Below are positions 1,105 through 12,677 of a stretch of DNA of 20,000 bases, one piece after another (positions within the stretch are counted from its first letter, which is position 1; each line of letters starts with the position of its first letter). The position numbers were made by a program, and so were the translations under genes. Source of the stretch: an uncultured virus (IMG/VR IMGVR_UViG_3300032050_009172) (lineage: Duplodnaviria; Heunggongvirae; Uroviricota; Caudoviricetes); IMG/VR virus record IMGVR_UViG_3300032050_009172; one strand, 5' to 3'. Under the pieces are notes generated by a model. That model worked only from the letters and a program-made list of their open reading frames with translations. It was not told the DNA's origin and did not search any database.

Positions 1105-1179
1105 GGGGGTGTGGTGAAACGGTATCACAGCAGACTTTTAATCTGCCAATTTCGGGTTCGAATCCCGGCGCCCCTACCA
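1105..1179 (+). tRNA. tRNA-Lys(TTT)
   Basis: GGGGGTG/CGCCCCT acceptor, GCAGA-CTTTTAA-TCTGC anticodon arm, TTCGAAT T-loop, CCA. Confidence 0.93.
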
Positions 1180-1270
1180 TATAAAAACACATTCAACTAA
1201 TGACACGGGTGGTAGCCGTGTATCTTAGTGGGCTAACGAACTACTACGCCTGAGTGTGTTCCTATATGGT
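1176..1270 (+). ncRNA. Putative structured RNA between tRNA-Lys and tRNA-His
   Basis: ACCATATAAAAACACATTCA (1176-1195) pairs with TGAGTGTGTTCCTATATGGT (1251-1270); two internal hairpins with complementary loops. Confidence 0.6.
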
Positions 1271-1342
1271 GACGTTAGTTTAGTGGCAAAACCGCGGGTT
1301 GTGATTCCGCTGTCATGAGTTCGATTCTCATACGACACCCCA
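1268..1342 (+). tRNA. tRNA-His(GTG)
   Basis: G-1 and C73 present; GCGGG-TTGTGAT-TCCGC anticodon arm; one A:A mismatch in acceptor stem; CCA. Confidence 0.92.
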
Positions 1343-1347
1343 GACAT

Positions 1348-1439
1348 GCCCCTATAGTTTAATGGTAAAACGGCGGATTTATATCCCGTAAGCAACAGAT
1401 AATTGGTTCATCTGGGTTCGACTCCCGGTGGGGGTACCA
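1348..1439 (+). tRNA. tRNA with TAT anticodon (nominally Ile) and long variable arm
   Basis: GCCCCTA/TGGGGGT acceptor; GCGGA-TTTATAT-CCCGT; ~22-nt variable region; TTCGACT T-loop; A73, CCA. Confidence 0.85.
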
Positions 1440-1444
1440 AACAT

Positions 1445-1519
1445 GGATGTATAGCATAATGGTAGTGCGCCTCCTTCATACGGAGTCAAGTGGTAGTTCG
1501 ACTCTACTTACATCCACCA
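1445..1519 (+). tRNA. tRNA-Met(CAT), elongator-type (Ile2 not excluded)
   Basis: GGATGTA/TACATCC acceptor with paired 1:72; CCTCC-TTCATAC-GGAGT; CCA. Confidence 0.88.
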
Positions 1520-1531
1520 AATAGTTTTTGT

Positions 1532-1605
1532 TCGGGTATAGTGTAATGGTAACACTACAGACTTTGACTCTGTCATTCTAGGTTCGAGCCCTAGTACCCG
1601 TGCCA
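1532..1605 (+). tRNA. tRNA-Gln(TTG)
   Basis: TCGGGTA/TACCCGT (U1:U72 mismatch), ACAGA-CTTTGAC-TCTGT, G73, CCA. Confidence 0.92.
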
Positions 1606-1611
1606 AGTTTT

Positions 1612-1686
1612 TGCCGTGTAGCTCAGAGGAAGAGCAATCGCTTGATAAGCGATAGGTCGACATTTCGAAACTGTCCATGGCAACCA
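1612..1686 (+). tRNA. tRNA-Ile(GAT)
   Basis: TGCCGTG/CATGGCA, ATCGC-TTGATAA-GCGAT, atypical T-arm GACAT-TTCGAAA-CTGTC, CCA. Confidence 0.88.
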
Positions 1687-1693
1687 AATGATC

Positions 1694-1722
1694 TTTACAA
1701 CAGTGTCTGAGTGTTGTATAAT
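1694..1722 (+). promoter_or_regulatory. Sigma70-type promoter inside the tRNA array
   Basis: TTTACA-17 nt-TATAAT upstream of tRNA-Gly. Confidence 0.7.
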
Positions 1723-1734
1723 AAGTATTTTAAC

Positions 1735-1808
1735 GCAGGGTTCGTATAGTGGTAATACCTTAGCCTTCCAAGCTAAAGCGAGGGGTTCGATTCCCCTACC
1801 CTGCTCCA
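1735..1808 (+). tRNA. tRNA-Gly(TCC)
   Basis: GCAGGGT/ACCCTGC, TTAGC-CTTCCAA-GCTAA, U73, CCA. Confidence 0.95.
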
Positions 1809-1821
1809 CAAGGAACAAACA

Positions 1822-2040
1822 ATGGACATGGATCAAGCGGCTGTATTCTTAGCTGGTAGTATTTTGACAGCAATAGGATTTGTAGTGATTGTGGCGGCGG
1901 CTGTTGCTGTCAACAACATCATAAGTCGTTACTGGAAGCCTGTAAAAATTTTCACAGCAGACAGTTGGAATCTGGGCCACGGCACAAGATTTGCTGAACC
2001 CCATGAACTTGACAAAAGTCAAGAACCCAAAGTAAAATAA
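1822..2040 (+). CDS. Small predicted membrane protein
   Basis: AAGGA RBS; hydrophobic N-terminal helix; fills the gap between two tRNAs exactly. Confidence 0.75.
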   Translation: MDMDQAAVFLAGSILTAIGFVVIVAAAVAVNNIISRYWKPVKIFTADSWNLGHGTRFAEPHELDKSQEPKVK

Positions 2041-2046
2041 AATACA

Positions 2047-2123
2047 CGGAGTATAGCACAGCCTGGTAGTGCGCCTGGTTTGGGACCAGGAGGTCCGAGG
2101 TTCGAACCCTCGTACTCCGACCA
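2047..2123 (+). tRNA. tRNA-Pro(TGG)
   Basis: CGGAGTA/TACTCCG, CCTGG-TTTGGGA-CCAGG, CCA. Confidence 0.95.
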
Positions 2124-2129
2124 ATAGAT

Positions 2130-2205
2130 GTAGGTGTGTGCCGAATGGCTAGGCGCCGGATTGCAAATCCGTATAATGCAGGTTCGAGTCCTGTCACCTA
2201 CTCCA
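2130..2205 (+). tRNA. tRNA-Cys(GCA)
   Basis: GTAGGTG/CACCTAC, CCGGA-TTGCAAA-TCCGT, U73, CCA. Confidence 0.92.
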
Positions 2206-2208
2206 AGT

Positions 2209-2392
2209 TTAGAAAAGATGTGTGAAAAACTCATTGACTATGGGCCCAACTGCTAGGGACCTTAACGTTATCCAGGTGCCGCTGGGATTAAGTTCCAGAC
2301 TGCTAGTCACAGTCGAACCATGTGCCAGGAAGGATGTGAGCTACCCGAAAGGATGTTCAGTACCTTTAAACGCAAAGCAGTATCTTTTTTAA
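2209..2392 (+). ncRNA. Putative ~185-nt structured ncRNA between tRNA-Cys and tRNA-Ser
   Basis: Closing helix 2209-2219/2382-2392, several nested hairpins, GAAA tetraloop, TGACTA/TAGTCA loop-loop complementarity; no credible ORF. Confidence 0.65.
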
Positions 2393-2399
2393 TTTTTTA

Positions 2400-2490
2400 G
2401 GAAGTGTGGCAGAGTTGGTTGATTGCAGCAGTCTTGAAAACTGCCGGCTCCGAAAGGGGTCCGTGAGTTCGAATCTCACCACTTCCACCA
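2400..2490 (+). tRNA. tRNA-Ser(TGA)
   Basis: GGAAGTG/CACTTCC, GCAGT-CTTGAAA-ACTGC, long variable arm with GAAA loop, CCA. Confidence 0.95.
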
Positions 2491-2495
2491 TATAC

Positions 2496-2570
2496 GGGTG
2501 ATTAGCTCAGCGGTAGAGTCGCTGCCTTACACGCAGTTTGTCGGGAGTTCGATCCTCTCATCACCCACCA
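2496..2570 (+). tRNA. tRNA-Val(TAC)
   Basis: GGGTGAT/ATCACCC, GCTGC-CTTACAC-GCAGT, CCA. Confidence 0.95.
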
Positions 2571-2575
2571 TTCAT

Positions 2576-2651
<76 letters not shown>

Positions 2652-2652
2652 G

Positions 2653-2856
2653 TTAGATTTTAGGTGTAAGATGTTTGATGCGTTGATTCACCACATGCTC
2701 GACTGAATTGTCGTTGTAGGCCATAGCAGCCAGCAAGCCTGTTAGATATCCGCGCTCGTAGGCCAACTGTTGTTGTTTGGTCACAAACGTTTTGCCCAAT
2801 GTTTCCATTGCAAGCAAACGCTCTATTTTTTTGATGGAGTCTTGTTTGGTTTGCAT
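2653..2856 (-). CDS. Hypothetical protein, 67 aa (MQTKQDSIKKIERLL...)
   Basis: C-terminal part of ORF 2653..3114; fits between tRNA-Phe and tRNA-Leu; TAAATA 4 nt upstream of ATG. Confidence 0.7.
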   Translation of the reverse strand: MQTKQDSIKKIERLLAMETLGKTFVTKQQQLAYERGYLTGLLAAMAYNDNSVEHVVNQRIKHLTPKI

Positions 2857-2867
2857 GATGTATTTAA

Positions 2868-2944
2868 GCCCCGGTGACGGAATTGGTATACGTGTTGGTC
2901 TTAGAAGCCAAATTTTAGGAGTTCGAGTCTCCTCTGGGGCACCA
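2868..2944 (+). tRNA. tRNA-Leu(TAG), short variable loop
   Basis: GCCCCGG/CTGGGGC, Leu-type D-arm, TTGGT-CTTAGAA-GCCAA, variable ATTTT only, A73, CCA. Confidence 0.9.
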
Positions 2945-2982
2945 AATTTAATGTAGCTTGCACAGACTTTTAAATACACTGT

Positions 2983-3756
2983 ATGGCTACAATTACTCAA
3001 ATAGAACAGTACTGGGATCAACAACCTTGTAATATAAAGCATGGGTTGGCACCAGAAGGCACAGAAGAATTTTGGAACAACATCAATCGTCGTAGATGGT
3101 TTGTTGGGCCGCATTTGTGGCAGTTGGCCGACTTTGAAAACTGCAAGGGACGGCGGGTGCTAGAACTAGGATGCGGCATTGGATCTGATGCTGAACAATT
3201 TGTACGGCATGGTGCTGAATACGTTGGGATTGATCTTAGCAGTCGTAGCATAGAACTTTGTGAGCAGAGATTTACTGTTATGGGATTAGATGCTGAATTC
3301 TATCACATGGACGCAGGCGACAGTCAGCGTGTTGCAGGGCTAGGACAATTTGATATGGTGTATGCTTGTGGTGTATTGCATCACTATCCCAATGTAGAAC
3401 AAGTGGTCAGCAATGCTTACGCAAGTCTAGCATCTGATGGGGAGTTTCGTTTCCTAGTGTATGCTCGCAACAGTTGGAAATGGGCAATGATTCAGTCTGG
3501 GCTGGACCAGTTTGAAGCGCAAGACAACTGCCCATATGCCAGAGTTTACAGTCAAGGAGAAATACAAAAACTGCTGGACGTACACTTTGATATCAAAAGC
3601 ATCAAGCAAGATTACTGTTTTATGTACAATGTAGAGCAGTACAAACAAGGAAATTATGTGTTGGAACCATGGTTTGCTGCCATGAGCGATGCACAACGCC
3701 AGGCTGTCAATCAACAGCTAGGTTGGCATTTAAGCGTGATTGCCGCAAAGCAATAA
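2983..3756 (+). CDS. Class I SAM-dependent methyltransferase
   Basis: VLELGCGIG motif I, GIDLS, FDMVYACGVLHH. Confidence 0.9.
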   Translation: MATITQIEQYWDQQPCNIKHGLAPEGTEEFWNNINRRRWFVGPHLWQLADFENCKGRRVLELGCGIGSDAEQFVRHGAEYVGIDLSSRSIELCEQRFTVMGLDAEFYHMDAGDSQRVAGLGQFDMVYACGVLHHYPNVEQVVSNAYASLASDGEFRFLVYARNSWKWAMIQSGLDQFEAQDNCPYARVYSQGEIQKLLDVHFDIKSIKQDYCFMYNVEQYKQGNYVLEPWFAAMSDAQRQAVNQQLGWHLSVIAAKQ

Positions 3757-3775
3757 ATACAAAAAGGAGATTATT

Positions 3776-4075
3776 ATGGCTATAGTTGCTAAAACTGTGT
3801 TGGTGTATGCGTCTGTAGAAGATCGAGAAACAGCAAGAACTATTATCCCTTGGAGTAATTATTTACAAATTGTTGGAGACGGTGGGCATGATGACTTTAC
3901 TGTGGTTGGTACCGCAGGTCTCGACCCGTCAGAACTAGGTCCCACCCATTTAACTGTAACTCGAAAATGGGAAAACAAAAAAAATGCAGAAGACTTTGTT
4001 GAATGGATGACTGCACAACTTTCAACTTTTAGTGTTGTTCCTGTGTCATTTACTGTAGAAGATTATACAGAATAA
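3776..4075 (+). CDS. Hypothetical protein, 99 aa
   Basis: AAGGAG RBS before ATG 3776; TAAATA at 3754; terminator downstream. Confidence 0.75.
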   Translation: MAIVAKTVLVYASVEDRETARTIIPWSNYLQIVGDGGHDDFTVVGTAGLDPSELGPTHLTVTRKWENKKNAEDFVEWMTAQLSTFSVVPVSFTVEDYTE

Positions 4076-4105
4076 CGCATGATCAGATTGTCTGACACAA
4101 GTTAT

Positions 4106-4140
4106 AAAAACAGTAGGCCAGTCCTACTGTTTTTTTTTTT
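4106..4140 (+). terminator. Intrinsic terminator, possibly bidirectional
   Basis: AAAAACAGTAGG-CCAGT-CCTACTG followed by T11. Confidence 0.85.
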
Positions 4141-4146
4141 GCAAAT

Positions 4147-4223
4147 GCCCCGGTGACGGAACTGGAATACGTGTCTCTCTCAAAAGGAGAATTCTGAGGG
4201 TTCGAATCCCTCCTGGGGTACCA
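4147..4223 (+). tRNA. tRNA-Leu(CAA), short variable loop
   Basis: GCCCCGG/CTGGGGT, TCTCT-CTCAAAA-GGAGA, variable ATTCT only, A73, CCA. Confidence 0.9.
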
Positions 4224-4252
4224 CTATCAATAAATATTTTTGAAAGTTGAAA

Positions 4253-4723
4253 ATGAAAAAGCTCGATATAGCATCAGTAGCAGAATTTATCCAGAAACAA
4301 ACGCCCGAAACTCGCATCTACCTTGGCTGCGACTCTGAACGAATCAAAATTGACGGTACCTGGTATGCCGACTATGTGTTGGCCATTGTGGTACACATCA
4401 ACGGCAACAACGGCTGCAAACTGTTTGGCGAAGTTCAACGCGAGCGTGTGTGGGACGTGAAACCAGGCAAACCTGCCATGCGTTTGATGACCGAAGTGTA
4501 CAAGGTTTCAGAACTGTATTTGAAACTGGCTGACGTACTAGAAGGCCGTCAAGTTGAAGTTCACTTGGACATCAACCCAGACGAACAATACGGTTCAAGT
4601 TGTGTGATCTCGCAAGCTGTGGGCTACATCAAAGGAACATGCAATGTGATTCCGTTTGTGAAGCCAGAAGCATTTGCAGCATCATACGCGGCAGATAGAT
4701 TTAAGAGTTTACGAGCTGCCTAA
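4253..4723 (+). CDS. RNase H-like YkuK (DUF458) family protein
   Basis: IYLGCDS, AIVVH, RLMTEV, EVHLDIN, KPEAFAASYAAD motifs. Confidence 0.85.
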   Translation: MKKLDIASVAEFIQKQTPETRIYLGCDSERIKIDGTWYADYVLAIVVHINGNNGCKLFGEVQRERVWDVKPGKPAMRLMTEVYKVSELYLKLADVLEGRQVEVHLDINPDEQYGSSCVISQAVGYIKGTCNVIPFVKPEAFAASYAADRFKSLRAA

Positions 4724-4736
4724 TAAGTAACGGAAT

Positions 4737-4810
4737 GCAGGATTAGTTTAGGGGTAAAATAGAACCTTGCCAAGGTCCAGTCACCAGTTCGATTCTGGTA
4801 TCCTGCTCCA
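4737..4810 (+). tRNA. tRNA-Gly(GCC)
   Basis: GCAGGAT/ATCCTGC, GAACC-TTGCCAA-GGTCC, U73, CCA. Confidence 0.92.
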
Positions 4811-4814
4811 CTTA

Positions 4815-4888
4815 GCTCTCATAGTATAAAGGCATTACACTACATTGGTAATGTAGAAACACTGGATCGTTACCAGTTGGGAGCACCA
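4815..4888 (+). tRNA. tRNA-Thr(GGT)
   Basis: GCTCTCA/TGGGAGC, CTACA-TTGGTAA-TGTAG, atypical T-loop ATCGTTA, CCA. Confidence 0.88.
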
Positions 4889-4893
4889 ATTCT

Positions 4894-4968
4894 CGGCCCT
4901 TGGTGAAATGGATATCATGCTTGTCTTCGAAACAAGCGGTGGGAGTTCGATCCTCTCAGGGCCGGCCA
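4894..4968 (+). tRNA. tRNA-Arg(TCG)
   Basis: CGGCCCT/AGGGCCG, CTTGT-CTTCGAA-ACAAG, A20, G73, CCA. Confidence 0.92.
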
Positions 4969-5070: not shown

Positions 5071-5508
5071 ATGACACAATCTGTAAAAGGTACCCGTACC
5101 GAAGAAAACTTGAAGGCGGCATTTGCCGGAGAATCGCAAGCCAATCGTCGATACTTGTATTTCGCAAACATGGCCGACGTAGCAGGCGACAATGACGTTG
5201 CTGCCTTGTTCCGTTCAACTGCCGAAGGCGAAACTGGACATGCACACGGTCATATGGAATACTTGATCGAAGGTGGTGCTGGAGATCCCGCCACTGGCAT
5301 GAGTGCCAAATCTGTTGAGCAGGCTCTGGAAAGTGCTATTCATGGCGAAACACATGAATACACTGACATGTATCCTGGCATGGCCAAAACTGCCAGAGAC
5401 GAAGGCTTAGACGAGATTGCTGACTGGTTTGAAACACTGGCCAAAGCCGAACGCTCACATGCCAATCGTTTCACCAAAGCCCTGGCTGCTCACAAAGAAG
5501 CACAATAA
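5071..5508 (+). CDS. rbr: Rubrerythrin (short form, no fused rubredoxin domain)
   Basis: [40 protein letters not shown] di-iron motifs; AGGAGG RBS. Confidence 0.95.
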
Positions 5509-5875: not shown

Positions 5876-6180
5876 TGGCTAACGACTTTGCTAAATTCAA
5901 AAACTCAGCTCGCCGTCATAAAACAGATGTTGCAATTGCTAGACAAGTCAAAATTGCCAAAAGTCATAGCACCTACAACTTACGAAGCATTAGGCAAACA
6001 CATCGCCTGGCCAAACATCATGCCATGGACTGCGGCAATCCTGCATGTTACTTGTGTGGCAATCCACGTAAGACACATAAAGACAAACTTACAGCCCAAG
6101 AGAAAAAACTATTTCAAGATTTAGATTCCCTCAACCACCATCACTCAAACGGAAACAACAATGAAAATTATTCACAGTAA
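5875..6180 (+). CDS. Basic hypothetical protein with possible Zn site
   Basis: HAMDCGNPACYLCGNPR; coupled to neighbours. Confidence 0.75.
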   Translation: MANDFAKFKNSARRHKTDVAIARQVKIAKSHSTYNLRSIRQTHRLAKHHAMDCGNPACYLCGNPRKTHKDKLTAQEKKLFQDLDSLNHHHSNGNNNENYSQ

Positions 6181-6430
6181 CGACAGAACAGCCGGGTTGA
6201 CCAGCGAAGCCGCAGTAGCCGCAATTGGCAATCGCTATGACTTGGTGCTAGTGGCTTCTCGACGATTGCGCGAACTCAATCGCGGCGACATGCGAAAAGT
6301 TGCAAGTAAAAACAGCAACTCAGTGGCAGTACTTGAAGAAATTGAACAAGGCAAAATCACAAGAGACTATCTCTATCGCGAACAAGATTTAGAACCCCGA
6401 CGTAGACGTAGAACCAATGGATCTATCTAA
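6161..6430 (+). CDS. rpoZ: RNA polymerase omega subunit-like protein
   Basis: AVAAIGNRYDLVLVASRRLREL...VAVLEEIEQGKI resembles RpoZ ([21 protein letters not shown]...IALREIEEGLI). Confidence 0.88.
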   Translation: MKIIHSNDRTAGLTSEAAVAAIGNRYDLVLVASRRLRELNRGDMRKVASKNSNSVAVLEEIEQGKITRDYLYREQDLEPRRRRRTNGSI

Positions 6431-6842: not shown

Positions 6843-7708
6843 AAATACAACTACACGAAAATGGTTGGACTTCAATCATTACTGATATTGATTTACGTTC
6901 TGCTTCACAGCAAGAGATGAATACCATTGCTTGGCTTGCTGCCAAAGACACCGTGGTTGTGATACGCGATCAACACCTTTTGCCCGGAGACGAAGTTGAC
7001 ATCTGTGAAAAAATTGGTGCATGTGAGCAAGTGGCGCCGGCTAATACGCCAACACCGGGCACAAAATTAGTACAAGGCGGGCGTGGTAAAATTGTCAGAG
7101 TAGGTGGCGGTGGTCACCATCATGGACAACCAGGTGTGTTTGAACATGTGAGTGATCTAGATTGGCACTGCAATAGAACCGGTAGTGAAGACCGAGATCC
7201 GTTGATTTGGTTGTATTCAGTAAAAGATTCTGTTGGCAGCCGAACCAGTTGGATCAACAACATTTTGAGTTATCAAGATCTTGACCAAGAACTCAAAGAA
7301 CAAATCAAAGATTTAAAACTGGTCATGGGGTTTGATGCTAGGGTGATCTCTGAAGACACTTACACAATCACCAGTCGAGATTCAAATGCCATCAACCACA
7401 ATTGGTATCCAAGTTTGTTACACACCAACCAGGCTGGTGTCACAGGCATGTTTTTTTCGTTTTTACAAATTCATCAGATACTGGGTTTTGACAAAGACAA
7501 AAGCGATGCCCTAATTCAAAAATTACGACAACATGTGGAGCAAGAAAAATACACATATCACCACGATTGGCAAGACGGTGACATTGTGTTAAGTGAACAA
7601 TGGTTAAGTATTCACAAAAGATGGCGCTGTGAAAACATTCAGAATCGAGTGGTGCATCGCATTGCTCTTAACTTTGATCACTGCAACATTTCTAATACTT
7701 TAGTGTGA
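6839..7708 (+). CDS. TauD/TfdA-family Fe(II)/2OG dioxygenase-like protein
   Basis: VVVIRDQHL, WHCN, LY...GSRTSW, AYxxL-like SYQDL, YHHDWQDGDIVL...IHKR...RVVHR. Confidence 0.85.
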   Translation: MKIQLHENGWTSIITDIDLRSASQQEMNTIAWLAAKDTVVVIRDQHLLPGDEVDICEKIGACEQVAPANTPTPGTKLVQGGRGKIVRVGGGGHHHGQPGVFEHVSDLDWHCNRTGSEDRDPLIWLYSVKDSVGSRTSWINNILSYQDLDQELKEQIKDLKLVMGFDARVISEDTYTITSRDSNAINHNWYPSLLHTNQAGVTGMFFSFLQIHQILGFDKDKSDALIQKLRQHVEQEKYTYHHDWQDGDIVLSEQWLSIHKRWRCENIQNRVVHRIALNFDHCNISNTLV

Positions 7709-7737
7709 TTGACCAAAAATTCCTGATCTGCTATAAT
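7709..7737 (+). promoter_or_regulatory. Sigma70-type early promoter
   Basis: TTGACC-17 nt-TATAAT with extended TG. Confidence 0.8.
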
Positions 7738-7763
7738 TACACATTAACAGAAAGGAGTGCAAA

Positions 7764-7997
7764 ATGAGAATTGAAACTGTAAACGGTCGCAACCTTGTTT
7801 GTGGCCACTTCTTCCCGGCCGACGAGCTTGCAAGCGGTCAACGCTGGGCACCTGCCGACGGCAGTAACCGCGAAGTCAAAATTGTCACAGTAGACGGTGA
7901 CTGGATTGAATACGAATGGCAAGACAATGGTGAGAGAAAAACTCATCAAAAATTAGCATTTGCATTTCAGTGCCGTTATTGTAAAGTAGTAGAATAA
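7764..7997 (+). CDS. Hypothetical protein, 77 aa
   Basis: AAAGGAG RBS, downstream of promoter. Confidence 0.8.
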   Translation: MRIETVNGRNLVCGHFFPADELASGQRWAPADGSNREVKIVTVDGDWIEYEWQDNGERKTHQKLAFAFQCRYCKVVE

Positions 7998-8008
7998 AAA
8001 GGAGGCAC

Positions 8009-8629
8009 ATGATGCCAGCAACATTTTTGGTAAGCGACACGCATTTTGGTCATGTTGGCGTGTGCAAGTTTACACACCCAGATGATGACACTGTGAAATT
8101 GCGTCCGTGGGATGATCCTGCAGAGATGGATGAGGAAATGATCCGCCGTTGGAACGACCGTGTTCGTCCATCAGACAAGGTCTACCATTTGGGTGACGTG
8201 GTTATTAACCGCAAGGCATTGCCTACGTTACATCGCTTGAACGGCGACAAGGTATTGATCCGCGGCAACCATGATATCTTCCGTGATGATGAGTACCGCA
8301 GGTACTTTCGTGAATTGCGAGCATATCATGTGTTGAACGGAATGATCTTGAGTCACATTCCTGTGCATGAATCTAGCTTGGGTCGCTTTGGTGTAAACAT
8401 CCACGGACACTTGCACGCCACTCGAGTTAAGAAAGCTCGTGGTGTTGATGCCCGTACAGGAGAGATCTTGTATGGCACAGAACTGGATGTGCGGTATCAT
8501 TGCGTATGTGTGGAGCAGACTGATTTTGCGCCTATCTTGTTGGAAGATGTGTACAAACGCATTGAAGCAGAAGGTGGACGGATTGGCTTGCAAAACGGCA
8601 ATTTCAAAACTGAGCATCATGTAGATTAA
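8009..8629 (+). CDS. Calcineurin-like metallophosphoesterase
   Basis: SDTHFGH, HLGDV, RGNHD, LSHIP, IHGHLH; AAGGAGG RBS. Confidence 0.92.
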   Translation: MMPATFLVSDTHFGHVGVCKFTHPDDDTVKLRPWDDPAEMDEEMIRRWNDRVRPSDKVYHLGDVVINRKALPTLHRLNGDKVLIRGNHDIFRDDEYRRYFRELRAYHVLNGMILSHIPVHESSLGRFGVNIHGHLHATRVKKARGVDARTGEILYGTELDVRYHCVCVEQTDFAPILLEDVYKRIEAEGGRIGLQNGNFKTEHHVD

Positions 8630-8630
8630 A

Positions 8631-8733
8631 GGCGGCTTTCTGCCTAGCCCTCTGCTTGTGAAAGTATGGTGAAGTGATAGGGTACAGATCAGAACGGCTG
8701 ACACCATAGTTCAGCACCGGAGTCGTAACCGGT
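8631..8733 (+). ncRNA. Putative pseudoknotted structured RNA
   Basis: Several stems, GTGA tetraloop, TATGGTG/CACCATA 7-nt perfect complement to a hairpin loop. Confidence 0.55.
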
Positions 8734-8748
8734 AATTTTATTACAATT

Positions 8749-9660
8749 ATGAAATTAACTTTAGATCCAAACGGCTGGGTAGTGCATGTAGATCAACTAA
8801 ACGTGCTAGATGTAAACAGCACCGAACGCGATCAATTAAGAACGCTACCTTATACCAACTTGCTGGTTGTAATCCATAACACGCAACCGTTAACCATTGA
8901 TCAATATCATCAATTTACTTCTGGTGTGTTTGATGATCTCAATAACGATCTTCCAGCCAAAGAAAAAATATTTGTCGAACAAACCAACAAAGAAATTATC
9001 AGAGTCACTGGTAAGAAAGATGTCCACGGTGAAATCACTGGATTATTTGGCATGCCAGATGATTTGCCTTGGCACTGCAACGAACCAGGAAGAACTGCCG
9101 CAGAACGTCCCGATGCTTTGTGTTTGTACGGGGTAGAACATACTGAAGGCAGCATCACAGGATTTACCAACAGCATACAAGCATTAAACGATCTTAGGCA
9201 AGCAACCGATACACCAGTTGGACTATTAAGAAGTCTGGATCAGCTCATGTGTTATTACAATTACTCAGGCAGTACAGATAACGGGCCTATGGCTGCAGAC
9301 GTTAACTATCAAGGCAGAACAGGATTTAACAAATTTGTTACTCAAAACAAATCAGGGGCCACGGGCATCCATTGGTCACCCATGCAAAATCCAATATTCT
9401 ATATTGGCAAAACACCAGTTCCAAACGCTGGACAACAAGCATGGTTCAGTTATCTGTACAAATTTCTAACTCAGCCCAAGTACCAGTACGCTCATCATTG
9501 GCAAGACTATGAAATAATTATCAATTGCCAGTGGTTGAGCATGCATGCTCGTCCTGCATTTGAAAATATTGAAAACCGTCTGTTGTGGAGAGCCATGGGC
9601 TATGTTAGCCCATTTGATGGGTCAGCGATTGATACTGGCCAGCTTGAATTGCGCCAGTAG
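8749..9660 (+). CDS. Second TauD/TfdA-family dioxygenase-like protein
   Basis: WHCNE, LCLYG...GSITGF, YAHHWQDYEIII...MHAR...RLLWR; paralog of 6839..7708. Confidence 0.82.
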   Translation: MKLTLDPNGWVVHVDQLNVLDVNSTERDQLRTLPYTNLLVVIHNTQPLTIDQYHQFTSGVFDDLNNDLPAKEKIFVEQTNKEIIRVTGKKDVHGEITGLFGMPDDLPWHCNEPGRTAAERPDALCLYGVEHTEGSITGFTNSIQALNDLRQATDTPVGLLRSLDQLMCYYNYSGSTDNGPMAADVNYQGRTGFNKFVTQNKSGATGIHWSPMQNPIFYIGKTPVPNAGQQAWFSYLYKFLTQPKYQYAHHWQDYEIIINCQWLSMHARPAFENIENRLLWRAMGYVSPFDGSAIDTGQLELRQ

Positions 9661-10404
9661 TTCAATTATTCTGGCAGGTGGGTCAATTTCATACCAGCGT
9701 TGACTGAATCTATAGTTGGCTGCATTTTGATGATGGTTCTTGTGCCAAGCTTCGCCATTGTTGATGTTTAATAACACCATCAGCACACTGTTACTGCTGG
9801 TGTCATCATTGTGTATAGGTAGCAAGAACCAAGGTGTGCGATGACACAATGAATTGATTGTGTGAAGTTTGAACACTGTGAGTCCAATTACTGCTATCCA
9901 TAATCCTACCAGGGCAGGATCAATTGCAAATAACAATGCAAACCAAACTATGTTGAGGGCCCAGTACCAATGATAAAACCAAAGATGGCGAGAATCTCTA
10001 CCAAGGTCCACAATGTATTTGGTTTTGACTTGATTGAAATAGCTCAAAAATTGAATAGCCCACCGACTCTTATGATATGGAGAATGTGGATCACGGTCAG
10101 TGTCACAATGTGCATGATGTTCGCGATGAATTCCCACCCATCCAATGCTGTTGCCTACTAGGCACAAGGTAAATACAACAAGTCCATACAAATCAACTAC
10201 TGAACTAGGTTTCCAGGCGCGATGACACCAGGCGCGATGCGCAAACATAGTGATGTGAATTCCCATAAACCAACTGGTCAATAGCACAACAAAAAATGTA
10301 GTCCATGACCAGTTTATTGTCAACCAGATCACTGTCCAAATTGGAAATAACATGCCAACGGAACTGAGTGCCACTGGGTCGATCAAGGAGCGAGAGATTT
10401 TCAT
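9622..10404 (-). CDS. Membrane fatty-acid desaturase (delta-9/DesC-like)
   Basis: His boxes HRAWCH, HREHH, EAWHKNHH; DPHSP; W-x-x-DP. Confidence 0.9.
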   Translation of the reverse strand: MKISRSLIDPVALSSVGMLFPIWTVIWLTINWSWTTFFVVLLTSWFMGIHITMFAHRAWCHRAWKPSSVVDLYGLVVFTLCLVGNSIGWVGIHREHHAHCDTDRDPHSPYHKSRWAIQFLSYFNQVKTKYIVDLGRDSRHLWFYHWYWALNIVWFALLFAIDPALVGLWIAVIGLTVFKLHTINSLCHRTPWFLLPIHNDDTSSNSVLMVLLNINNGEAWHKNHHQNAANYRFSQRWYEIDPPARIIELLAQFKLASINR

Positions 10405-12648: not shown

Positions 12649-12677
12649 AGCCCTACAACATGTAGGGCTTTTTTTTT
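12649..12677 (+). terminator. Intrinsic terminator
   Basis: AGCCCTACA-ACA-TGTAGGGCT followed by T-run. Confidence 0.85.

Follow-up and report, generated by a model that had tools for sequence, protein, structure and literature searches.

Bacterial small RNAs derived from 3′-UTRs, such as CpxQ and DapZ, are processed from an mRNA whose terminator they share, and they depend on Hfq or ProQ. We have analyzed a window of DNA (the whole stretch under study, 20,000 nucleotides) from a freshwater jumbo phage which contains a structured element of about 105 nt, the length across the family being about 100–120 nt. The element resembles the 3′-UTR-derived small RNAs in several respects: a stop codon immediately precedes it, the little room upstream contains no separate promoter, conserved nucleotides occur in its loops or unpaired parts, and a U-rich stretch comes after its 3′ hairpin. 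With five helices it is, however, more structured than these RNAs.

The tRNA repair system of phage T4, in which Pnkp and Rnl1 counter the anticodon nuclease PrrC, is a second point of comparison. An Rnl1-type ligase (PF09511; PHROG 562), a PNK-like kinase (AAA_33; PHROG 505) and phosphoesterases are likewise found near copies of our element, but the healing phosphatase is calcineurin-like or DSP-like and not of the HAD type, and in the phage of the window the phosphoesterase alone is adjacent to the element. To our knowledge no dedicated noncoding RNA belongs to the T4 system.

Bacterial and phage Y RNAs (YrlA) are encoded beside the RNA-repair genes for Ro60 (Rsr) and RtcB (compare PMC4201824). 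Like YrlA, our element is a structured noncoding RNA of about 100 nt with conserved hairpin loops, located in the same orientation in an RNA-repair-type neighborhood, and the octaloop of its last helix, P5, contains the T-loop-like motif UCGUA. Unlike YrlA, it has no Ro-binding stem formed by pairing between its 5′ and 3′ ends. The YrlA model of Rfam does not match the element, a TROVE/Ro gene (PF05731) was found in none of five phage records in a search which did match the control genomes, and the ligase near the element is of the ATP-dependent Rnl1 type and not RtcB.

For jumbo phages, RNA-repair sets have been reported in which ATP-grasp ligases occur together with kinases and phosphoesterases, the latter being calcineurin-like in a few phages, and some jumbo phages encode a ROT/TROVE (Ro) platform with a tRNA-like partner (PMC7824862). 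These sets fit the neighborhood of the element, and the part of that study on which we draw here contains nothing on this RNA. As a covarying intergenic motif of uncultured phage contigs the element also resembles the csRNAs of IMG/VR phages (PMC10690425), which stem from the same data source. Neither the names of six carrier contigs nor the 10-nt core of P5, on either strand, occur in six supplementary files of that catalog; two large supplementary files were outside this search, so the element may already be listed there. Our literature searches gave no description of such an element.

The locus and its transcription unit

The element is located in a gap of 119 nt (8630–8748) between the stop codon of the open reading frame 8009–8629 and an ATG at 8749, both genes being on the plus strand. 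The upstream gene encodes a calcineurin-like phosphoesterase (Pfam Metallophos, E 9.4e-6; PHROG 547 “phosphoesterase”, E 1.2e-45) whose closest solved structure is only the hypothetical protein aq_1665 (E 5.8e-4), and the element begins straight after its stop codon. The downstream gene (8749–9660) encodes a dioxygenase of the TauD/TfdA family (Pfam TauD, E 5.8e-19). An open reading frame of 159 amino acids on the minus strand (8228–8707), which runs antisense through the phosphoesterase gene, has no Pfam match.

The phage has a genome of 364 kb, and nearly identical DNA is present in many lake and freshwater metagenome runs. For genome-wide counts we used the record nearest to the window (G001; 364,404 bp with direct terminal repeats), in which the gap maps to 351989–352109 on the minus strand. 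The element is present there in one copy and there is no repeat family of it in this genome. An earlier note made from the window alone had described a gap of about 120 nt in an otherwise tightly packed region. The size is correct, but the gap is not exceptional, as 73 of 416 gaps of the genome measure at least 100 nt, with the 75th percentile at 64 nt, when genes are called with a crude ORF caller. The same note had pointed out that the ATG at 8749 has no obvious Shine–Dalgarno sequence. This is correct for SD-like 4-mers, but with the same crude caller only 144 of 417 starts in the genome have one. The heads of operons in this phage carry sigma-70-like promoters and Shine–Dalgarno sites of the GGAGG type.

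A consensus scan revealed a TG-extended sigma-70-like promoter on the plus strand at 7709–7737 (TTGACC-17-TATAAT; 11 of 12 consensus positions matched), and the scan for terminators a canonical intrinsic terminator with a 9-bp stem followed by T8 at 12649–12677, also on the plus strand. Judged from these signals, the promoter probably starts and the terminator probably ends the transcription unit containing the element; since the two bracket the gap, the latter is probably located within one transcription unit. Auxiliary genes in the window encode a radical SAM protein, a methyltransferase, rubrerythrin, two TauD-like dioxygenases, a hexapeptide transferase, a fatty-acid desaturase, an Asp/Arg hydroxylase and ThyX.

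At gathering thresholds Rfam 15 matches in the whole window only the 17 tRNA genes at 1105–4968, which were also found with ARAGORN, and none of them is on the element. When the region 8500–8900 was searched at E ≤ 10, the only match was NrrF on the minus strand, which scored 21 bits where the gathering score is 60, and in seven other carrier loci there was no match on the element at E ≤ 5. ARAGORN detected no tRNA in the gap nor on the element in 13 carrier loci, and the tRNA model of Rfam had no match at E ≤ 10. The earlier note had likewise not recognized the family. The element is not coding either, since there is a 2-nt indel inside it when the window is compared with its close relatives L007 and L008, the reading frame is not conserved among the homologs, and the short peptides starting with UUG or CUG differ between copies in length and sequence.

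Homologs of the element

The family occurs in uncultured freshwater jumbo phages and comprises 14 distinct solid copies as well as two doubtful ones (L243 and L245, with weak scores of 16 bits) which have only a P5-like hairpin. The close relatives L007 and L008 were reached through the TauD protein (93–95% protein identity). Their gap is that of the window except for one block, in which the stem GCUGA/UCAGC of helix P4 is replaced by GCAAG/CUUGC and the loop is kept. TauD relatives with about 64% identity have unrelated DNA upstream. Pattern scans of IMG/VR added G002 (L047), G044, G045, G047, G049, G050 and G051, and of these G044, a contig of 252 kb, contains two tandem copies separated by 8 nt. 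With the covariance model R1 a diverged copy in G017/G074 was found among 95 related records, and three of 78 RNA-ligase loci proved to carry the element (L297, which is identical to L298, and L307). A search of 90 other phosphoesterase loci with the model R2 yielded two loci with the element, both of the G017/G074 lineage.

Searches of the phage GenBank collection with megablast, blastn and tblastn gave no match, and an nhmmer profile of the first four copies retrieved only the same phage from 160 loci. Several candidates were rejected: L040, L044 and L212 are chance pattern matches, ten of 22 loci from a pattern scan (L215, L216, L218, L219, L227, L228, L231, L232, L234 and L235) are coding DNA without the other helices, and L246 and L247 score 15–16 bits in coding DNA.

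Among close relatives the element is distributed sporadically and looks like an insertion at the stop codon (L047 compared with L091; L226 compared with L055), and on inspection of the compared loci neither terminal repeats nor clear target duplications were seen around it. Its rarity (two of the 90 other phosphoesterase loci and three of the 78 RNA-ligase loci) means that it is dispensable for these genes and that its linkage to them could be inherited synteny rather than function.

Conserved secondary structure

Folding of the single sequence does not distinguish the element from chance: the minimum free energy is −33.6 kcal/mol (z = −0.93) with 31 of 200 shuffled sequences being as good, and the minus strand is likewise unremarkable (z = −0.69). 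The comparison of the copies, however, supports five helices, which we designate P1, P2, P2a (a hairpin enclosed by P2), P4 and P5. The coordinates given below refer to the plus strand of the window.

P1 (8630–8645) is predicted to be a hairpin AGGCGG-CUUU-CUGCCU. Its AGG/CCU foot is conserved, with the foot pairs retained in 15 of 16 rows of the alignment, and the upper pairs covary; the pair 4-15, for example, is UG in six, CG in four, UA in four and GC in one of the rows. P2 (8646–8671) would consist of G8647·U8670, C8648–G8669 and C8649–G8668, A8646·G8671 being a mismatch, and two of its pairs vary from AU (5) to CG (5) and GC (4) and from CG (7) to UA (7) and UG (1). The enclosed P2a (8653–8666) is variable. 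In the window it reads UGCUU-GUGA-AAGUA, the GNRA hairpin of the earlier note, which the comparison bears out: other copies have at the same place a hairpin of different sequence such as UGC-GCAA-GCA or CUGCA-CUGGUC-UGCAG. Only the two basal pairs of P2a can be aligned, and these are 100% paired.

The alignments place between P2 and P4 a junction (8672–8696) with a conserved purine-rich motif of the type GGGU(G/A)A, here AGGGUA at 8679–8684, and the sequence GAACGGC leads into P4. P4 (8697–8715) is formed by GCUGA/UCAGC and an inner pair C8702–G8709 which closes a hexaloop ACCAUA (8703–8708), with U8710 bulged. Five of its six pairs change on both sides, two of them with the types AU (9), UA (5), CG (1) and GC (1) and AU (10) and GC (5), and even the inner closing pair covaries (AU in seven, CG in five and GC in one). 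Immediately adjacent is P5 (8716–8733), ACCGG-AGUCGUAA-CCGGU with the loop ANNCGUAA, whose stem is 100% paired and occurs in compensated variants such as GCCAG/CUGGC (L244) and ACCGU/GCGGU (L297 and L307). The loops of these two neighboring hairpins are ACCA(U/A)A, a closed hexaloop, and A-N-N-CGUAA throughout the family. Across the alignments the stems covary and the loops stay fixed. Between P5 and the TauD start there is an A/U-rich tail AAUUUUAUUACAAUU (8734–8748), which together with P5 has some likeness to a weak intrinsic terminator. P5 with AATTTTATTA passes a loose terminator consensus scan, the stem having only 5 bp, the loop 8 nt and only some copies a U-rich tail.

When 12 copies were aligned to the model R1 (alignment A7), 98.9% of 178 cells were paired and nine of 15 pairs changed on both sides; these values were not attained in any of 500 shuffles, and slid controls were 16–43% paired. 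The corresponding figures for alignment A10, made with the model R2 from 16 rows (the 14 solid copies and the doubtful L243 and L245), are 95.2% of 374 cells, 19 of 26 pairs, none of 500 shuffles and 23–40%; both alignments were fitted to covariance models, which favors the modeled structure, the shuffle figures are not to be taken as probabilities, and they overstate the significance of the pairing because many rows are close relatives. The range of pair types in P2, P4 and P5 would nevertheless be difficult to account for without RNA structure.

The middle domain of the element differs between two subtypes, and the alignment across the subtypes is without confidence in this part. In the seven type-1 copies P2 is made by UUGNN right after P1, which pairs with NNYRA of a conserved “..UGAAG”. 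Type-1 copies also have an extra hairpin P3b in the junction (eight of 16 rows, 96.8% paired). As a separate lead, the P1 loop of the type-1 copies may contact GAYG before GGGUGA (in seven sequences 92.9% of this contact is paired, and one pair changes on both sides); this contact is absent from type 2.

All the complementary segments which the earlier note had listed are present in the window at the coordinates given there. Of the six pairings proposed, three are supported: besides the GNRA hairpin, GCTGA/TCAGC and ACCGG/CCGGT are retained as P4 and P5. Two others did not survive the comparison. TTCTG/CAGAA is lost in L007 and L008, where the CAGAA arm vanishes in the exchanged block; its 5′ arm is inside the conserved P1, and the 3′ arm lacks conservation. 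For GCCCT/AGGGT, considered as a helix P3, no consistent register of GGGU exists across the copies and its 5′ arm is taken by the conserved P2, which we therefore preferred. The note also proposed a pseudoknot between the P4 loop (CACCATA) and TATGGTG at 8665–8671. The 7-nt complement is real, and when the 67 nt upstream were shuffled by mononucleotides 20,000 times, only 1.5% of the shuffles gave a complement of at least 7 nt. The pairing, however, is not conserved in the family: the complement is found in three of 14 copies, which all belong to one near-identical lineage and have identical letters, whereas the other 11 copies contain only complements of 0–5 nt at scattered positions. This is the chance level, as at least 4 nt were obtained in 81% and at least 5 nt in 30% of the shuffles. 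Since 8665–8671 is invariant among the window, L007 and L008, there is no covariation behind this pairing, and this 5′ partner also supplies the 3′ strands of the family's conserved helices P2a and P2. The contact may be a lineage-specific alternative, but it is not a family feature. The gap does contain a structured, noncoding and conserved RNA, and to this extent the reading of the note is supported; the 7-bp pseudoknot is not conserved.

Genomic neighborhood

Every copy of the element is on the coding strand, its start coinciding with a stop codon, overlapping one or lying next to it. In eight of the 14 copies (window, L007, L008, G002, G049, G050, G051 and G017) the gene directly upstream encodes a calcineurin-like phosphoesterase (Pfam Metallophos; PHROG 547) whose stop codon is 0–3 nt away from the element, and in five of the 14 an operon with an Rnl1-type RNA ligase ends with it. 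In G045, the one contig of these scanned upstream, the cassette also contains a PNK-like kinase and a phosphoesterase. The order of genes there is a DSP-type phosphatase (DSPc), an ORF of 77 amino acids, a phosphoesterase with 39% identity to that of the window, the kinase (AAA_33; PHROG 505, polynucleotide kinase), the Rnl1 ligase (PF09511; PHROG 562), an ORF of 69 amino acids and the element. On contig G044 the same ligase (79% identical), a kinase and a phosphoesterase (42% identical) are located within about 4 kb upstream. In the first copy of G044 as well as in L297 and L307, a conserved small ORF extends into P1 with its last five or six codons and is terminated by the UGA located at the 3′ foot of this helix. 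No Rnl1 homolog was detected in the window phage (none in five records), and its PNK-like kinase lies far from the element.

The downstream side is variable. A TauD-like gene follows in four of the 14 copies, one of them being L229, where a terminator-like hairpin and a promoter-like site are in between. Other downstream genes encode a TctC receptor-like protein (G044 and G045), an AAA ATPase (G049), or a tRNA-Thr followed by DUF7338 (G017), with different genes again among the remaining loci scanned; tRNA genes adjoin the element in only one of 13 loci. A separate terminator and promoter between the element and the next gene are present in G002, G044, G049, G050, G051 and L297. In most cases a U-tract or a terminator comes after the element: a U-rich tract comes after P5 in the window, L214, L307, L244 and L245, and in L226, L230, L297 and G044 a canonical terminator follows within about 60 nt. 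In most of the phosphoesterase relatives which lack the element, either tRNA genes or an AT-rich palindromic hairpin, a canonical terminator and a promoter come after the stop codon. The earlier note had placed a riboswitch- or ribozyme-like RNA upstream of the second TauD-like gene of the window, but it is the 3′ end of the upstream gene to which the element is attached, and the genes on the other side are not functionally consistent. Because of this variation a TauD riboswitch is not supported; the TauD gene (8749–9660) is the downstream neighbor in this lineage only and is outside the conserved unit.

Possible function

We think it fairly probable that the gap contains one copy of a structured RNA family unmatched in Rfam, which is the 3′-terminal domain or a processed noncoding RNA of an RNA-repair-type operon. 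With the promoter of the window at 7709, the element would be transcribed as the 3′-terminal domain of the mRNA of the upstream operon, and it would act as an RNA in its own right. The fixed loops ACCA(U/A)A and A-N-N-CGUAA on covarying stems suggest that the element is recognized by a protein or RNA partner. More tentatively, and at somewhat less than even confidence, we propose a stable 3′-UTR-derived or processed noncoding RNA whose two invariant loops would be the recognition sites for a protein or RNA partner linked to the repair of RNA or tRNA ends. In this phage P5 with AAUUUUAUU would in addition form a leaky terminator before the TauD gene.

P5 with its U-tract may be used as a weak terminator, and a purely cis-acting 3′-end element, that is a compound stabilizer, a site for RNase processing or a leaky intrinsic terminator of the upstream mRNA, has to be considered, although we regard it as less probable. 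The window element would then attenuate read-through into the genes for TauD, hexapeptide transferase, desaturase and hydroxylase. The invariable location on the coding strand just behind a stop codon, the U-rich tracts after P5, the ordinary terminators at the same position in relatives without the element and an RNA-library contig which reads through P5 into the TauD gene would all agree with this. Five helices, invariant loops and a covarying closing pair of the hexaloop, however, go far beyond what a terminator or stabilizer needs, and the tandem duplication suggests that the dosage of a product matters. Furthermore, where a separate canonical terminator follows within about 60 nt (L226, L230, L297 and G044), the element is not needed for termination.

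A more specific form of a functional RNA, which we consider rather improbable, is that the element constitutes the RNA part of a phage RNA healing-and-sealing system, either as a new class of self-cleaving RNA that is healed and ligated or as a tRNA mimic or a tRNA-binding scaffold or decoy. If it were self-cleaving, unit-length products would be healed, ligated and perhaps circularized by the phosphoesterase, the kinase and the Rnl1 ligase, tandem copies being present in one phage. As a decoy, it might with its adjacent P4 and P5 loops protect or present tRNAs attacked by anticodon nucleases of the host.

Also quite improbable is that the element represents a new class of small self-cleaving ribozyme, which may be selfish or mobile and whose products, ending in a 2′,3′-cyclic phosphate and in a 5′-OH, would be handled by the neighboring healing and sealing enzymes. 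The sporadic, insertion-like distribution, the tandem copies only 8 nt apart, the conserved junction and loop nucleotides alongside variable stems, and the phosphoesterase, PNK-like kinase and Rnl1 ligase in the neighborhood could be explained in this way. Against it stand the missing terminal repeats and target duplications and the window phage being without the ligase, and none of the ribozyme models of Rfam (hammerhead, twister, HDV-like, pistol, hatchet and others) matched the element even at E ≤ 5–10.

The element is very probably not a ligand-sensing switch dedicated to the TauD gene. Such a pseudoknotted riboswitch or cis-regulator of the gene at 8749, using P5 and the U-tract as expression platform and the contact between the P4 loop and 8665–8671 as switch, could draw on the element ending 15 nt before an ATG without Shine–Dalgarno sequence in this lineage, on the 7-nt complement, which is unlikely by chance and competes with P2/P2a so that alternative folds are possible, and on L229 with its TauD-like gene, but it has become hardly credible and is largely refuted already by the variable downstream genes, to which are added the unrelated upstream DNA of the TauD relatives at about 64% identity, the pseudoknot partner missing in 11 of 14 copies and the lack of a match to any riboswitch family of Rfam.

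Few structured RNAs of uncultured jumbo phages are well supported, and the element shows clear covariation, has two loops that do not vary and recurs at the 3′ ends of phosphoesterase and RNA-ligase operons, which are of the RNA end-repair type. Should it be a partner, decoy or substrate of the repair enzymes, then phage counter-defense against host systems which cleave tRNA or RNA would gain an RNA component, for which the bacterial arrangement of Ro60, Y RNA and RtcB would be a parallel. If its role is confined to the 3′ end, it remains of use for recognizing where operons end in these phages. Moreover, a pseudoknot that looks plausible in a single sequence can, as here, be lineage-specific.

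RNA-library contigs over the region

Three metatranscriptome runs contain small parts of the region 7700–9700. An RNA-library contig of 266 nt with no mismatches and a depth of 2 covers 8660–8925 and thus runs through P4 and P5 as far as the TauD gene. Read-through transcription would be compatible with this contig, as weak evidence in view of possible carry-over of DNA and because contigs do not show RNA ends. Two further RNA-library contigs touch the region: X18, which represents diverged phosphoesterase-gene relatives, ends near 8639, and X20 covers 8988–9176 only.

Tandem copies and a possible tertiary pairing

The phage contig G044 carries two diverged copies of the element in tandem on its minus strand (G044:232235-232467, corresponding to positions 500-732 of locus L222), which are separated by a spacing of 8 nt. 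Each subtype is represented once in this pair, by a type 1 copy with P3b and the loop AACCAAA and by a type 2 copy with the loop CACCAUA. In the alignment of type 1 copies (A9) the P1 loop (CGUC, CGCC or CGUU) was compared with the sequence GAUG, GGCG or GACG found just 5′ of the GGGUGA motif, and these positions (columns 9-12 with 49-52) are paired to 92.9%, with one compensated change. Judged from this complementarity, the P1 loop may form a tertiary pairing with the tetranucleotide in type 1 copies. The pairing was not seen in the subtype to which the copy in the window belongs.

Conserved sequences next to phosphoesterase and TauD-like genes

Many relatives of the phosphoesterase gene have a conserved AT-rich palindromic hairpin of the type GTAATACT-NN-AGTACTAC directly 3′ of the stop codon (loci L052, L056, L058-L060, L116, L128 and others), where it stands 5′ of the canonical terminator. 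The same hairpin is also present 3′ of the element in L226, L230, L297 and contig G002. It may act as an operator or mark a site of processing.

A different conserved block lies in the approximately 110 nt 5′ of the TauD homologue in L004/L010, L006 and L012 and is common to these loci even where the upstream gene differs. Its 3′ end reads TATTTAAATAAATA and is followed by the ATG. The block contains a short ORF-like frame of 27 aa in L004 and of 19 aa in L006; in L012 the loss of a single nucleotide interrupts this frame.

Gene content of the window and of other contigs

Contig G045 encodes a cassette of the RNA healing-and-sealing type (L251, 519-2505; L241, 378-1489), consisting of a DSP-type phosphatase, a 77-aa ORF, a calcineurin-like phosphoesterase, an AAA_33/PNK-like kinase, an Rnl1-type ligase and one or more small ORFs. 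Its phosphoesterase, kinase and ligase also occur in G044 (L239, L250, L253), and the ligase has about 240 relatives in IMG/VR.

Within the window, the ORF with an RNA polymerase Rpb6/omega-like domain (6161-6430, E 1.4e-10) and the rubrerythrin-like ORF (5071-5508, E 8.6e-26) both represent auxiliary genes that are unusual in a phage. An ORF of 260 aa without Pfam match (9622-10404, minus strand), a candidate gene, runs antisense between the TauD-like and hexapeptide-transferase genes in an otherwise plus-strand block.

The window also contains 17 tRNA genes clustered in three blocks (1105-4968), with a methyltransferase gene (2983-3756) and the ORF of an RNase H-like protein (4247-4723) interspersed among them. 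One of the 17, 92 nt long, is annotated as tRNA-Ile(tat). From about position 1441 an indel within the tRNA block puts the window out of register with G001, the nearest record used for comparison, so that these assemblies differ from each other.
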